A stretch of DNA of 5,933 nucleotides, taken from a virus (lineage: Duplodnaviria > Heunggongvirae > Uroviricota > Caudoviricetes). The stretch lies in the IMG/VR virus record IMGVR_UViG_2713896780_000020; one strand, 5' to 3'. A program made the translations under genes and the position numbers. The stretch's first letter is position 1, and every line of letters begins with the position of its first letter. Below, piece by piece: positions 820 to 5,007 of this stretch. The notes beneath the pieces are model-generated. The model was not told where the DNA came from. It saw only the letters and a program-made list of their open reading frames with translations, and searched no databases.

Positions 820-3660
820 TCATATATCGCGGCGCGTTTTTTGCTCATTTACGGGATTTGTGAATCCCGTTTCTGTCTGTTTTTTGTTTCCACTGGTCAG
901 GCCACCCCGCAGCAGGTCTGCTTTGCGGCGGGCACGTTCAGTGGTTTCACTGATTCTCTGTGCGTGCTCTGCGTCGCGGATGGCGCGCAGCATGTCAGAA
1001 AGCACGGTAACGGGTGTTTTCATGGTGTTCTGGTCCTGCTGAAGTGTGGATGCCAGACGTGCGGCGGCTTCGGGGTCTGATGCCCCCAGTTGTTCCAGAT
1101 AGCTGGCGACCGGGTTATGGCGGATCTCTGTGCTGCTTACGCCGTGATTACGGCTCAGGCGCTGCCAGAGCTGCGTGATTCGGCTGTCCGGGCGGGTATC
1201 CGGTTTGCGTACAATTTCAAATCCCTGCGGTGCAATGATGCTGCCGTCAACGTACAGGCTGCCGCCCCGTAACAGGTGCTGCATCTGCTGTTCACCGATA
1301 TGCAGGCCGAGAGATTCGGCAGATTCCCGCCATTCTTTAGCGAGTAATTCGTGGTTATCAGGCAAAGGCCGCTGCTGTTTGCGGCTCTGTGTCCAGCTCT
1401 GCATTTCATCACTGCTGTTTTTTGCCTGTTTGTCACGAAGCGAACGCATCAGCGCCCGGCGTTCGTGCCGTTTCAGTGAGTGCATCCATTCGTTCACTTC
1501 AACGCCATCAGGGAGCTGCGGCCACGGTGCTGGCCGTTCTTCCGGCTGTTCTGTCCCGTTGTTGTTCGTTTCCTGTACACGGGGACAGTTATTGCCACGA
1601 GTCCAAGGGGCGGCAGGGCCGCCCTGAAGGTCAAAACCATTTTCGCGGGCGCTGTCTTCCGCTTCCGGTTTACGTCTTACCAGCTTCCAGTTATCCGGGT
1701 GCGTGCACACGCGGGAAGACTCCCCGATGAGCGGCGACCAGATCCCGTAAATCTGTACACTCTGCTCGCCGTAATCGTTCAGCTCATCTGCGAGGTCGTA
1801 GGCGGTGCGAATCAGGTAGTCTTTGCGTGGAACAAGTACGCCACCCTGTTTCTCAATGTAGGTGGCAAAACATCCGGCATCAGCGGCAGCGAGTACCGCG
1901 TCCATTGCGTCATCCTTCAGCCGTTGCGGGCCTTCCGGGTTGCGTGCCATCTGGCTGGCAAGGCGGCGCAGTTCACGCCACACCTGACGGGAGGGGATAC
2001 CAAAGAACTGGAACTGGCGGACCCGGTGAAGGCGCGCCCAGCCGATGGCGCGTTCCACGCTCTCGGCCATTGATTTTCCGGTTTCGTGGTCAACGCGTGG
2101 CTTGCCCGTTTTCGGGTCGATGCCATCCACGGCGCGGCTGTCCAGGTTCTTTCCGATGTAGGTGGCGATGTAGCTGGTTGGTGTGCCTTTTGAGCCGTCG
2201 ACATACTCCACCTTAAAGCGCGGAGTAATATCATTGCCCAGCTCGTGGCGGTCTTCCTGAATGGCAATATCGCGGGTGATGGTCACGATGCTGTCGATTT
2301 CTTCTGGATGAGCAAAGACCATCATGTGCCAGTGCACGGTGCCGTCATGGTGAGGCTCCACCGTGCGGATGCCATACCAGCGCAGGCCGTCGCGGTTCAG
2401 TTTTTTGCGGACCGCCGCAAAAAACGTGTTAACCAGGTAATCGCTGGAGTCGCGCATGGTGGCCCCGTTCCATTTGGGGTTCGGATGACCGTTCTCCGTT
2501 GTTGCGTGGTATTTTGACGGGCAGGTGACAGTCAGAAACACCGCTCTGTCGCCACGGGCTTCGGCCAGAAGTTCCAGTCCCTTCATGGTGGCCATCATTT
2601 CTGCCTTACGGTGAACCGGGTTACTTACTCCCGCGTAATACACCGTCTCGAGATCAATCGTGAACCCGTCTTCATTTTCCAGCATGAAACTTTTCAGGAA
2701 ATCGCGTGTTTTCTCGCGCTGTGCGCGAAACTCGCTTAACGCGTCCTGGCTCAGATAGGGTGATGTTTTTCTGGAAACCAGACAGGCGGCGCGGAGTTGT
2801 TCTTCTCTCCACTCGCAACGTAACAGCCACAGTTTGCGTTTCCACCATTCCGCACAGGTCAGGCGAAGGATTGCGCCCGGCAGCAGCTCCGTGTCCGGTT
2901 CGTTCCTCCGGTCTTTGTCTGTTGTCAGTGCGTCATAATGTGGAGGCATGGCGTGCAGGTGTAACGCCATGCGGGCCAGCATCTGATACGCCTTCAGCGT
3001 TACATCCATGGTCAGTTCGCCATCAGTCGCGCCAAAGCCATCGCAGAGTTTTTCGAAGGTGCTGCTGAACATCGCCGCCGTCATGGTGGCCAGCGTCTGT
3101 ATCTGGTGTTTGTTGAGCTGCGGCAGGTAAAGCAAATCGTCCAGGCGTTCGCGTCCGGCAAGAGAGCGATAACCCGGTGTCAGCCAGCGGCTGTCGGTGC
3201 GGTCCAGACGTTCGAATATTTTGCGCAGGGTTCCGCGTGCATAGCGTTCCGCCTGCCAGCTCTTTTTGCCTTTCTGACGATCGGCTTCCTGCTTCTTGCG
3301 CAGGAAAGAGAGGTGGCGGCTCAGAGGTTCTCGCAGATAAACGGGAAGCGCCTTCAGTGTGGCAAAGGCACGGGCTACCGGGTCTTGTTCTGTTGCCCGG
3401 CGCTTACTGATGATGCTCTGTGCCAGCTTTTCACGCTGTCCGGCTTCCTCAAGGGATGCCATGAGTTTTTTACCCATGGCGGATTGTGCGAAAAAGGCTT
3501 CTTCCTTTGCTTCCTGTTCTTTCTGTGCCCTTTTGTCCGCCTCAAGGTAGTAACGGATGGCGCGTTGCAGGTCGGTTTCAGTTTCCTGCCTGTGCTCCGT
3601 AAATCTGGCTGGATCAATGGCTGGCCGTGGTTCATTCCAGCTCCATGCAAACTCACTCAT
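820..3660 (-). CDS. A: Replication initiation endonuclease, phage P2 gpA family (HUH rolling-circle initiator), 946 aa
   Basis: Long minus ORF with TGA stop at 822-820. I place the start at ATG 3660-3658, which forms an ATGA overlap with the stop of the upstream ORF, rather than the GTG at 3687 used by the ORF track. Translation contains LTVTCPSKYH, GIRTVEPHHDGTVHWHMMVF (HUH metal-binding motif), YIATYIGKN (paired catalytic tyrosines), FATYIEKQGG and RVRQFQFFGIP, all recalled as conserved blocks of P2 gpA. Longer than P2 A (761 aa as I recall). Confidence 0.9.
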   Translation of the reverse strand: MSEFAWSWNEPRPAIDPARFTEHRQETETDLQRAIRYYLEADKRAQKEQEAKEEAFFAQSAMGKKLMASLEEAGQREKLAQSIISKRRATEQDPVARAFATLKALPVYLREPLSRHLSFLRKKQEADRQKGKKSWQAERYARGTLRKIFERLDRTDSRWLTPGYRSLAGRERLDDLLYLPQLNKHQIQTLATMTAAMFSSTFEKLCDGFGATDGELTMDVTLKAYQMLARMALHLHAMPPHYDALTTDKDRRNEPDTELLPGAILRLTCAEWWKRKLWLLRCEWREEQLRAACLVSRKTSPYLSQDALSEFRAQREKTRDFLKSFMLENEDGFTIDLETVYYAGVSNPVHRKAEMMATMKGLELLAEARGDRAVFLTVTCPSKYHATTENGHPNPKWNGATMRDSSDYLVNTFFAAVRKKLNRDGLRWYGIRTVEPHHDGTVHWHMMVFAHPEEIDSIVTITRDIAIQEDRHELGNDITPRFKVEYVDGSKGTPTSYIATYIGKNLDSRAVDGIDPKTGKPRVDHETGKSMAESVERAIGWARLHRVRQFQFFGIPSRQVWRELRRLASQMARNPEGPQRLKDDAMDAVLAAADAGCFATYIEKQGGVLVPRKDYLIRTAYDLADELNDYGEQSVQIYGIWSPLIGESSRVCTHPDNWKLVRRKPEAEDSARENGFDLQGGPAAPWTRGNNCPRVQETNNNGTEQPEERPAPWPQLPDGVEVNEWMHSLKRHERRALMRSLRDKQAKNSSDEMQSWTQSRKQQRPLPDNHELLAKEWRESAESLGLHIGEQQMQHLLRGGSLYVDGSIIAPQGFEIVRKPDTRPDSRITQLWQRLSRNHGVSSTEIRHNPVASYLEQLGASDPEAAARLASTLQQDQNTMKTPVTVLSDMLRAIRDAEHAQRISETTERARRKADLLRGGLTSGNKKQTETGFTNPVNEQKTRRDI
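851..870. repeat. 20-bp perfect palindrome ACGGGATT-tgtg-AATCCCGT (copy 2), within a ~39-bp repeat unit 848-886 with a T-rich tail on the plus strand
   Basis: Same 8-bp arms as copy 1 with a different 4-nt spacer and similar flanks (ttt before, tttctgtctgttttttg after). Overlaps the last codons of the gpA-like CDS. Confidence 0.6.
2158..2172 (-). other. Paired catalytic tyrosine codons (Y-I-A-T-Y) of the gpA-like initiator
   Basis: Plus 2158-2160 gta and 2170-2172 gta both give TAC (Tyr) on the minus strand, spaced Y-x3-Y as in rolling-circle initiators of the phiX174 A / P2 A type. Confidence 0.75.
2326..2334 (-). other. HUH motif codons (His-Trp-His) of the gpA-like initiator
   Basis: Plus-strand gtgccagtg reverse-complements to CAC TGG CAC (H-W-H), residues 452-454 of the ORF-track protein, in the context VEPHHDGTVHWHMMVF. 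Confidence 0.8.
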
Positions 3661-4046
3661 GGCTGGTATCCCGTCACGCGCTGCCACTCCTGCGAGAAGA
3701 GGGTGGAAAGGCGGTTAAATTCAGCGGTGTATTCACTCAGCGAGGCACACCCGCCAGCAGTGCGATGCGCCAGCATTGCCGCAAATACGGAGGCCGGGGA
3801 GTCGTAATAAGCCAGTAGTGATTCGCCGTGTGGTGTCAGGCAGTGCAACGCCAGCCCGTGTGGTGTGAAGTCCACGCGGTAGCAGTCGTCTACTGTGAAA
3901 TAAAGGGTGTCTGCATTCTCTGGTTTTGTGGTGCGTGCTCTGTTGTCACGACCACGGATGTAGAGATCAAATAATCCCTGAAGAACGGGAGCCAGACGGG
4001 TGTCCTGTGTGCGCACCCATCTTGTGAAGTCATGAGCGTCAATCAT
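3657..4046 (-). CDS. Hypothetical early protein, 129 aa, translationally coupled to gpA
   Basis: ATG at 4046-4044 (MIDAHDFTRWVRTQ...), stop TGA at 3659-3657 overlapping the gpA ATG. The ORF track extends this frame upstream through the 50-N block to 4235 (192 aa); the stretch between the gap and 4046 uses rarer codons (cgg, ggg, agg, tcg), so I favour the shorter gene but cannot exclude the longer one. Confidence 0.5.
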   Translation of the reverse strand: MIDAHDFTRWVRTQDTRLAPVLQGLFDLYIRGRDNRARTTKPENADTLYFTVDDCYRVDFTPHGLALHCLTPHGESLLAYYDSPASVFAAMLAHRTAGGCASLSEYTAEFNRLSTLFSQEWQRVTGYQP

Positions 4047-4115
4047 GCTGCAATTCTCTTTACTACAGATGTGCGAAGGCCTCCCGCCGCAAGGTGCAGG
4101 AAAGGCCCGGAACAG

Positions 4116-4165
4116 NNNNNNNNNNNNNNNNNNNNNNNNNNNNNNNNNNNNNNNNNNNNNNNNNN
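4116..4165. other. Block of 50 N (masked or unknown bases)
   Basis: Read directly from the sequence. Confidence 0.95.
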
Positions 4166-4235
4166 GTCTGCGGTTGATTTCAGTCTGGATGTGACGACGC
4201 TCCGCGATAGCGCGGTGTGGTTTGCGGTTTGCCAT
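4166..4235 (-). CDS. 5' end of a small early ORF (MANRKPHRAIAERRHIQTEINRR...) running into the masked block; 3' end unknown
   Basis: ATG at 4235-4233 with AAGGGG about 9 nt upstream; the first 23 codons use common enterobacterial codons (CGC, CGT, AAC, ATC, CAG, GAA). Continuation is hidden by N 4116-4165. Confidence 0.35.
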
Positions 4236-4390
4236 GGTGTGGCCCCTTGTGTAGTAAGTTGTGAAAACTCACCATCCAGAGCTGCGAAACTGTGGGTGGC
4301 GAGACGTACGAGGTTCGCAGTACCGGCTACACAAGAACCCGGCCCGACCGAAGTCGGCCCCGTACGCCCCGCCATAATTCTGACGCGAAA

Positions 4391-4440
4391 NNNNNNNNNN
4401 NNNNNNNNNNNNNNNNNNNNNNNNNNNNNNNNNNNNNNNN
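4391..4440. other. Block of 50 N (masked or unknown bases)
   Basis: Read directly from the sequence. Confidence 0.95.
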
Positions 4441-4465
4441 TTTTGTGTGTGCATGTTCTGGTTTC

Positions 4466-4765
4466 TTACTGGTTCAGAAAAAAATCAAAAACCTTGTCAA
4501 TGCGTTGCAGCAGCTCTTGCTGTATTGCTTCCGGCGTTTCCGGTTCGCCTGGTGCCTCCAACGTCGCGCAGAAATCGGCGATTTCATGATGGAGTGTCAG
4601 GCGAATGGCAGGAGCCGTGGTTCTGGCGTGCTCCAGCTCATCCAGCAGTGCCAGCACAGCAGACGGCGAGAGCGTTGCGCGAAACGCCAGTAATTTTTGA
4701 TGCGTTGCCATTCGTTGAAGGTCAGTTGCCAGTTCGCGTAATTCCTGGTGGTTGATGGCGCTCAT
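4466..4765 (-). CDS. Hypothetical early protein, 99 aa
   Basis: ATG at 4765-4763 overlaps the TGA stop of the upstream ORF (ATGA). Charged, helix-like composition (MSAINHQELRELATDLQRMATHQKLLAF...). The overlapping plus-strand ORF 4447-4755 is Pro/Arg-rich and looks like a shadow. Confidence 0.65.
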   Translation of the reverse strand: MSAINHQELRELATDLQRMATHQKLLAFRATLSPSAVLALLDELEHARTTAPAIRLTLHHEIADFCATLEAPGEPETPEAIQQELLQRIDKVFDFFLNQ

Positions 4766-5007
4766 GCTCTGGCTTCCTTCAGTAGCTGGTTAAACATGTT
4801 GGTAAGTGGATTGCCGCACCCGAACGGCATCGGGTTTATCTGGTAAGAAAAGCGACCGCCTGTTTTGCGCTCTTTTCTTATGACTGAACCGCTGCGCCAG
4901 AGTCGGCGTAACTCCGCATTAATGGCTGTGGTTGGGGTATTCAGTGCTGCGGCGATTTCTCCACCGCTACACCCCGGATTGGCAGCGATATAATCCAGAA
5001 TGGTCAT
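4762..5007 (-). CDS. Putative winged-helix DNA-binding protein, 81 aa
   Basis: ATG at 5007-5005 overlaps the upstream TGA (ATGA). The sequence ILDYIAANPGCSGGEIAAALNTPTTAINAELRRLWRSGSVIRKERKTGGRFSYQI has a helix-helix-helix then beta-hairpin layout typical of small winged-helix regulators. Fold assignment is inference. Confidence 0.6.
   Translation of the reverse strand: MTILDYIAANPGCSGGEIAAALNTPTTAINAELRRLWRSGSVIRKERKTGGRFSYQINPMPFGCGNPLTNMFNQLLKEARA

Follow-up and report, generated by a model that had tools for sequence, protein, structure and literature searches.

What lies between the two masked blocks of this phage sequence, and does it encode a protein or an RNA? The window analyzed here is the whole 5,933-nucleotide (nt) stretch of IMG/VR record IMGVR_UViG_2713896780_000020, a virus of the Caudoviricetes. 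Two runs of N, at 4116-4165 and 4391-4440 and 50 N apiece, flank a segment of 225 bases. The initial annotation had described two 50-N blocks within 4116-4440 and had proposed that the hairpin-rich segment between them may be a structured RNA or regulatory site of an early operon, read from the minus strand. The minus strand is the transcribed one, since all long open reading frames (ORFs) of the window lie on it, including the 2.8-kb gene for a replication endonuclease. The proposal of a structured RNA holds, and it can now be made specific. Very probably, the segment is a gene for a C4-type antisense RNA, the second of three components of an RNA switch. This switch, or module, belongs to the early operon of a prophage that is P2-like (P88/Xuanwuvirus type). 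Read along the minus strand, it consists, in order, of a promoter-like site, an IsrK/seqA-like leader RNA (with target sites a1 and b1 and a terminator), the C4 RNA (with seeds a' and b'), a 5' untranslated region (5'UTR, with target sites a2 and b2) and a gene for a 76-amino acid (aa) homolog of the P4 epsilon protein. Coordinates are collected in Table 1.

The C4 RNA family has been known since 1990. A covariance-model search against Rfam, suggested in the initial annotation, found a full-length match to it. Across the whole window, the scan returned one significant match: minus-strand 4379..4292 aligns with the C4 antisense RNA model (RF01695) over its full length (1-87 of 87), at 83.2 bits (gathering score 45) and an E value of 6.8e-16. 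Other Rfam matches in the window (snoZ30, MIR164, STnc410 and TMV_UPD-PK3) were all far under the gathering score and were taken as chance. Folding of the minus-strand RNA from 4384 to 4288 gave -47.7 kcal/mol (z = -3.41), and none of 200 shuffled sequences reached an equally stable fold. The shape of the minimum free energy (MFE) fold agrees with the C4 model.

The RNA is held together by a closing stem of 17 bp, in which GGCGGGGCGUACGGGG is paired with CCUCGUACGUCUCGCC. The CGTACG palindrome pointed out previously is present at 4305-4310. A second copy occurs at 4361-4366, and the two CGUACG copies pair with each other inside the closing stem. Hairpin 1 is the UUCG tetraloop hairpin of the initial annotation, which is found as described: the plus strand at 4341-4360 is GGCCCGACCGAAGTCGGCCC, and the minus strand reads GGGCCGAC-UUCG-GUCGGGCC. 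Hairpin 2 is formed by GCCGG and CCGGU around a 12-nt loop that bears seed b'. The unpaired joint of the RNA, ACUGCGAA, bears seed a'. Directly 3' of the closing stem is the sequence ACCCAC, which provides an ACCCA 3' tail. The 7-bp inverted repeat that had been noted, CTGCGAA at 4282-4288 and TTCGCAG at 4314-4320, is also present, but its two arms do not form a stem. They are rather seed a' and target a2.

The masking had been thought to hide the limits of the element and the ends of the flanking genes. The RNA itself is wholly visible, whereas most of the epsilon-like gene is indeed masked. What the masks conceal are the partners of C4: on the upstream side the IsrK/seqA-like leader RNA, and on the downstream side the greater part of the epsilon-like target gene. 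A 1401-base query around the segment matched six Escherichia coli (E. coli) chromosomes at 100% identity, with a match length of 1607 bases in each (+206). Because the genomic match is 206 bases longer than the query, the N blocks are placeholders, not 50-bp gaps. As an unmasked stand-in we read locus L001, from E. coli strain 2014C-3075, which has identical flanks. Window position x corresponds to x+401 in L001 up to 4115, to x+515 for 4166-4390 and to x+607 from 4441. Block 1 represents 164 bp (L001 4517-4680) and block 2 represents 142 bp (L001 4906-5047). A tRNA/tmRNA scan of the unmasked region found nothing.

The positions of the targets relate C4 to the gene downstream. Target b2 runs straight into the Shine-Dalgarno sequence GGGG (4243-4246), which is ~7 nt ahead of the ATG (4235-4233) of the 76-aa gene. 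In relatives, the Shine-Dalgarno sequence after b2 is GGGG or GAGG. The upstream copies of the targets are beneath block 2. In L001, a1 is UUCGCAG and sits in a hairpin loop, and b1 is CUACACAAG and is unpaired.

For comparison we used 85 loci encoding the 76-aa protein, comprising 3 from a genome collection, 80 from IMG/VR and 2 annotated records. All 85 carry the module, and together they contain 44 distinct versions of the 340-nt leader. Pairs were counted in an alignment of 37 distinct leader sequences, with controls in which the partners were slid by 1-3 columns. The comparative alignment suggested in the initial annotation, meant to look for compensatory base changes among related prophages, does reveal such changes, both in the stems and in the seed-target helices. 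Pairing reaches 99.8% in the closing stem (17 pairs), where 3 pairs have changed on both sides, and 100% in hairpin 1 (5 pairs), where 2 have; in the group of L069, hairpin 1 reads CCAGC-AUCA-GCUGG, compensatory at 2 pairs. Hairpin 2 is invariant.

Variation in the leader clusters in six short patches (a1, b1, b', a', a2 and b2), and these change together as complements. In one type, for example, b' is CUGUAGUUG where b1 and b2 are CAACUACAG, and a' is GUGGAAA where a1 and a2 are UUUCCAC. In another, b' CUCUGUUAG goes with CUAACAGAG, and a' GUUCCAA goes with UUGGAAC. In the a'-a2 helix, all 7 pairs are kept throughout (100% paired) and 4 of them have changed on both sides; the same figures hold for the a'-a1 helix (7 pairs, 100%, 4 changed). 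The b'-b2 helix (9 pairs) is 96% paired with 5 pairs changed on both sides, and the b'-b1 helix (9 pairs) is 100% paired with 6. Pairing drops to 37-47% in the slid controls. This pattern is direct evolutionary evidence, from covariation, that seeds a' and b' contact both pairs of sites.

The set holds 12 seed types, or 13 if an insertion variant is counted, built from ~9 b' types and 5 a' types. The a' and b' types reassort, as in L046 and L003. A cognate C4 pairs with its own downstream sites at a mean of 15.75 of 16 positions, compared with 11.2 of 16 for non-cognate types. The non-cognate matches are mostly short contiguous runs, except in sets that have one seed in common. The insertion occurs in L076 (IMGVR_UViG_2582580934_000004, ~240-290), where 17 additional nt produce a C4 with two tandem b' loops. 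The first loop is of the L073 type (CUUUGCUCU) and the second is of the reference type (CUUGUGUAG), with palindromic CCGG stem arms between them. L076 looks like an intermediate of loop swapping via recombination at the CCGG arms.

These data bear on another explanation, in which the hairpins are incidental GC-rich structure or mark an ordinary terminator separating two genes. In its favor are the GC-richness of the region and a terminator-like pattern that a scan flagged within C4. Such an origin does not account for a covariance-model E value of 7e-16, for compensatory changes in both stems and seed-target pairs, or for the occurrence of the module in 1087 of 5426 complete E. coli genomes (~20%), with up to 4 copies. 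Nor, the scan artifact apart, do the C4 hairpins have a U-tract. We give this explanation next to no weight.

A further possibility is that the region encodes a real protein of the Phage_ASH family. The initial annotation saw no convincing protein frame here, and stated that one continuous, conserved coding frame across 4046-4465 would refute an RNA element. Once unmasked, the sequence does contain a continuous ORF of 205 aa over window 4043-4454 (L001 4444-5061, minus strand). The ORF is a hypothetical protein in GenBank PV340564 (phage PhiR44_2), is named 'ash family protein' in some RefSeq genomes and matches Pfam PF10554 (Phage_ASH) marginally, with 26.5 bits vs a cut-off of 26. Its frame is open in 32 of the 44 leader variants. 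It nevertheless bears no coding signature and fails the coding-constraint test. Its variable columns are spread flatly over codon positions 1/2/3 (35/42/42), and 25% of alternative codons are synonymous. The corresponding values for the 76-aa gene, used as the positive control, are 19/16/33, with variation in excess at the third position, and 49%. The protein-coding (Ash frame) reading was rejected by these codon-position and synonymous-fraction tests.

Other features of the ORF also count against a protein. Its substitutions fall in the six patches, which are mutually complementary as RNA, and it overlaps the conserved 76-aa gene out of frame. Of the 44 variants, 8 lack its ATG and 4 have a broken frame. 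The RefSeq annotation of an identical genome does not include it. In P4, the old 'cI ORF' (L086 8168-8584) belongs to the same Pfam family, its PF10554 match coinciding exactly with the CI RNA, and P4 owes its immunity to an RNA (PMC4825925, PMC3632133). Judged by its substitution pattern, the 205-aa ORF is spurious, and we consider a genuine Phage_ASH protein at this locus very unlikely. Pfam Phage_ASH itself probably models a translation of the IsrK-C4 RNA module.

The C4 RNA is preceded by a second RNA, which lies under block 2 in the window. On unmasked L001, Rfam isrK (RF01394) matches at 5004..4930 on the minus strand with 64.1 bits (gathering score 50) and an E value of 5.5e-13, and the same C4 match is recovered alongside it. 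By consensus match, a sigma-70-like site, TTGCCA-18-TACATT, ends 7 nt before isrK model position 1. An intrinsic terminator, AACCGC-GCCA-GCGGUU followed by U7, stands directly after a1/b1; it too was identified by consensus match, and it is invariant in the 37 sequences. By model score, the segment RNA is a genuine Rfam C4 RNA, and the RNA upstream of it probably belongs to isrK. The segment is an ordinary, unannotated instance of a known system. The second promoter-like site, of which half is visible in the window, is of uncertain status. In many relatives its first hexamer is TCGCCA, and GAATTATGG is invariant.

The left border of the module is sharp, since three different upstream junctions converge on the same sequence. 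It is ~22-25 nt past the stop codon of the upstream ORF (window 4466-4765). An 11-nt inverted repeat, AAAAAAACCGC / GCGGTTTTTTT (L001 5041-5051 and 4930-4940), flanks the unit of promoter and IsrK, and its left copy is at this mosaic left border. The repeat would be carried solely by read-through transcripts of the early operon, in which it could compete with the terminator stem.

Downstream of C4, the 76-aa gene continues under block 1, which covers codons ~24 to the stop. Its product matches Pfam PF25738 (Derepression) with 32.5 bits (cut-off 27, E 7.4e-8), and BLASTP aligns it with P4 epsilon at 29% identity over 66 aa (E 4e-9). Many of its relatives are named 'derepression protein' in RefSeq. 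A sequence search of the PDB with the 76-aa protein found nothing, and NCBIfam gave no match for the 76-aa, 129-aa or 99-aa proteins. No ORF is found between C4 and the 76-aa gene in the unmasked sequence. By analogy with P4, the 76-aa product is a putative anti-repressor.

Farther downstream in the same operon is a P2-type gene A, and the N-terminus of gpA is present downstream in 78 of the 85 related loci. The slot between the epsilon-like gene and gene A is variable. Its 129-aa ORF (orf129) occurs in 20 of the 85 loci; elsewhere other small ORFs occupy the slot, such as an unrelated 121-aa ORF in L007. The epsilon-like gene and orf129 are separated by a spacer of 72 nt, in which a GC-rich hairpin without a U-tract, GGCCUUUCC...GGGAGGCC, occupies 4078-4110 (minus strand).

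Table 1. Features of the IsrK-C4 module and its surroundings, in window coordinates.
Feature	Position	Strand	Basis
C4-type antisense RNA gene	4292..4379	-	RF01695 match, MFE fold, compensatory pairs
C4 hairpin 1, CCGAC-UUCG-GUCGG (tetraloop hairpin of the initial annotation)	4344..4357	-	Model, fold
Seed b' (CUUGUGUAG) in 12-nt loop of C4 hairpin 2	4327..4335	-	Complementary to b2 and b1
Seed a' (CUGCGAA) in unpaired C4 joint	4314..4320	-	Complementary to a2 and a1
Target a2 (UUCGCAG) in 5'UTR of 76-aa gene	4282..4288	-	Complementary to a'
Target b2 (CUACACAAG)	4246..4254	-	Complementary to b', abuts Shine-Dalgarno sequence
76-aa gene, P4 epsilon / derepression-protein family, ATG 4235-4233	4116..4235 (codons ~24 to stop under N block 1)	-	Pfam, BLASTP
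N block 2: promoter-like site, IsrK/seqA-type leader RNA (~76 nt), intrinsic terminator	4391..4440 (L001 4906-5047)	-	Genomes with identical flanks
Second promoter-like site, visible half, TTGCCA-17-AATTAT, overlapping C4 5' leader	4374..4390	-	Promoter scan, status uncertain
Variable 129-aa ORF (phrog_3237) between epsilon-like gene and gene A	3657..4046	-	Context
P2-type replication endonuclease gene A, downstream in same operon	820..3660	-	Context

How might such a module work? The mechanism proposed here is drawn from P1/P7 c4, P4 CI RNA and Gifsy-1 IsrK. C4 would be excised from a longer transcript, which either begins at the block 2 promoter or arises by read-through from the early operon (step 1). 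RNase P may generate its 5' end; this is proposed because the closing stem and the ACC(C)A tail mimic the acceptor end of a tRNA. C4 would then accumulate in the lysogen and pair through a' and b' with a2 and b2 (step 2). This pairing is predicted to occlude the ribosome-binding site and shut off translation of the epsilon-like gene (step 3). Either the lost translation or premature termination would reduce transcription into the downstream small ORF and gene A, and gene A is presumably subject to such polarity from the module (step 4).

The role of the upstream sites can be pictured in two ways. C4 may act on a1/b1, next to the terminator, and so autoregulate through enhanced termination, as at P4 t1. 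Details of the P4 terminator t1 were reportedly given by Briani et al. in 2000. Alternatively, the short a1/b1 RNA may titrate C4 and so flip the switch on, in the manner of IsrK. When made, the epsilon-like protein would inactivate the P2 C-type repressor of the prophage, as P4 E does P2 C. P4 E binds P2 C (PMC2995052).

Several points weigh against this account. The module is known here from sequence alone, and its transcript, processing and phenotype are predictions. The content beneath the N blocks comes from identically flanked genomes rather than from the window. On L001, the Rfam model c4-a1b1 (RF03163) scores only 20.9 bits over the isrK match, vs a gathering score of 46.7. The module has no coupling ORF of the icd, kil or orf45 type, unlike P1, P4 and Gifsy-1. 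Two distinct P88-like prophage fragments, 93-97% identical, were observed in a single IMG genome (2526164662; L024 and L025), and their C4 seeds are of one type. Two modules of like type can therefore share a genome, and strict exclusion by type is not evident. Lastly, covariation is blind to whether pairing occurs in trans, in cis or in both modes, and when the entire read-through leader is folded, the MFE structure (-106.6 kcal/mol, z = -2.9) joins a'/b' to a1/b1 in cis.

That fold is what would be expected of a mainly cis-acting leader switch like Gifsy-1 IsrK. Here the C4 element of a read-through transcript would find its partner, a1/b1 or a2/b2, within that transcript. The trans activator (an anti-antisense) would be the short a1/b1 RNA that ends at the terminator, and free C4 would not be the main effector. 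The match to the isrK model, with its own promoter-like site and terminator, fits this arrangement. So do experiments on Gifsy-1, in which the short IsrK RNA activates translation of AnrP, the anti-repressor encoded downstream, and promotes induction (PMC4825925, PMC3632133). Set against it are the homologous RNAs of P1/P7 and P4, which are trans-acting immunity factors (PMC3632133). The C4 fold is, moreover, strongly conserved as an independent domain with a tRNA-like end. A processed, stable, trans-acting RNA would need just such a domain. We regard a mainly cis-acting switch as possible, though it is not the explanation we favor, and the cis and trans modes are not mutually exclusive.

The antisense switch proposed here resembles several known systems, of which P4 is the closest in layout. 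The P4 immunity region is composed of PLE, seqA, CI RNA (seqB), seqC, kil, epsilon, orf151 and alpha. There, CI RNA pairs with seqA and seqC, causing premature termination upstream of the replication genes. Ahead of epsilon, P4 shows the two Rfam matches of the present module, unchanged in order and strand: isrK (seqA leader plus its terminator) at 8692..8615 and C4 (CI RNA) at 8507..8420. It likewise has two seeds and two target pairs, and its b-type target UUCACAGG is followed by an AGG Shine-Dalgarno sequence. An epsilon-family gene and then replication genes come downstream in both. The ~12 reassorting seed types among the 80 loci of P4-like elements are a further likeness.

The differences are also clear. 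P4 is a satellite, whereas the element here is a P2-type helper with integrase, Cox, C-type repressor and gpA. An Icd-like kil ORF separates the RNA from epsilon in P4, and none does so here. Spacing is much tighter in the helper module, where IsrK and C4 are 36 nt apart and the ATG follows C4 by 57 nt; the P4 distances are 108 nt and, to epsilon, 245 nt. The replication gene found downstream encodes the gpA endonuclease here and the alpha primase in P4. The orf129 product is unrelated to P4 orf151, and with no similarity between the two, synteny with P4 ends after epsilon. The polarity of a-type pairing is inverted, as seen when helper loci L054, L073 and L084 are compared with the P4-like loci L142 and L086. 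Within P4 (L086 8189-8332), the C-terminal part of the annotated cI ORF matches the NCBIfam family 'Icd-like cell division inhibitor' with 73.9 bits. P4 kil is thus an icd homolog, positioned exactly as icd is in P1.

Helper-type and P4-type modules have no specificities in common. No P88-like C4 set exceeds 14 of 16 pairs against a P4-like leader, or the reverse, where cognate sets reach 15-16. Two helper a' seeds do resemble P4-like target sites: GUGGAAA equals one, and UUGAGAA is one base off the P4 site GUGAGAA. These same seeds, GUGGAAA and UUGAGAA, are complementary to the P4-like CI RNA seeds UUUCCAC and UUCUCAC. Complementary middle triplets between helper and satellite occur in 2 of 15 possible combinations, with ~0.2 expected by chance. 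This is suggestive only; the helper and satellite antisense RNAs could pair with each other, or the complementarity could be coincidence.

The C4 RNA of P1 and P7, which we take to be the founding member of Rfam C4, belongs to an immI operon of c4, icd and ant1/2. Citron and Schuster (1990, cited in PMC3632133) reportedly showed that it blocks the icd ribosome-binding site and thereby ant expression. The P1/P7 system is like the present one in that seeds a' and b' act on a1/b1 and a2/b2, a ribosome-binding site is covered by the downstream target and an anti-repressor is what the system puts out. Seed specificity is not the same in P1 and P7. The present module is unlike P1/P7 in lacking icd, in having an anti-repressor of the epsilon rather than the Ant type and in lying inside the early/replication operon rather than in a separate immunity operon. 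A DNA similarity search with the module did not retrieve P1.

In Salmonella, the Gifsy-1 locus comprises isrK, STnc1160/orf45 and anrP. It resembles the helper module in having a short terminated IsrK and then, by read-through, a C4-like element and an anti-repressor gene, and this switch controls prophage induction (PMC4825925). Gifsy-1 differs in being a lambdoid phage whose output, AnrP, is coupled through orf45. There, experiments showed IsrK to be an activator; in the P2-like module such a role is a prediction. IsrK-C4 modules of lambdoid and Stx phages (Stx2 phages, mEp460, ST64B and others) have ~70% DNA identity over module positions 72-266. They adjoin genes annotated as anti-repressor or Rha, and they differ in downstream gene family and phage backbone.

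The host element is a P2-like prophage beside pdxB. Its genes are arranged as integrase, repressor, Cox, small early ORFs, the module, a variable small ORF, gene A and ParM, and the repressor is of the P2 C type (PDB 2XCJ/2L49, E 4.4e-16). Phage records with both the module and the epsilon-like gene are those of P88, Xuanwuvirus P884B11, PhiR44_2 and a few relatives; the similarity searches for module-carrying phage records did not bring up P2, 186 or the other classical members. In the records sampled, only coding sequence features are listed under the module, with no RNA feature. P88 was recovered following treatment with mitomycin C (PMC5285337), which says nothing yet on the module. One locus, L005 (NZ_JBQPOM010000071.1, 'Vagococcus sp. 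WN89Y'), is a contig labeled as Gram-positive that carries an enterobacterial P2-like module at 88% identity. It is probably contamination or a mislabeled assembly.

The IsrK-C4 immunity system has been described for P4, P1, P7, N15 and lambdoid prophages (PMC3632133). Our literature search did not find a description of the module in P2-type helper phages, of direct linkage to an epsilon homolog without an ORF of the icd, kil or orf45 type, or of a position just upstream of gene A. A broader interpretation, which we put forward with little confidence, is that P88-lineage helpers carry an epsilon anti-repressor behind an IsrK-C4 switch as a second, RNA-encoded layer of immunity and anti-immunity that gates replication. 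The at least 12 orthogonal, reassorting seed pairs would then reflect conflict among P2-like prophages and P4-like satellites that reside together, and the P4 and helper cassettes would share a recent common origin. Such conflict could include direct cross-talk between helper C4 and satellite CI RNA, with helper a' mimicking target sites of the satellite.

For annotation, the finding means that a module present in ~20% of complete E. coli genomes nonetheless lacks an RNA feature in the sampled records, and it is sometimes covered by a spurious 'hypothetical protein' or 'ash family protein' ORF. In practical terms, at least 12 natural seed-target sets, with a and b modules that reassort on one scaffold, are candidate orthogonal riboregulators. 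For the biology of these phages, it places a homolog of P4 epsilon and a P4-type RNA switch in P2-type helpers that have a P2 C-type repressor. This suggests a possible route of derepression for such helper phages, and where relatives of the satellite's cassette are to be found.

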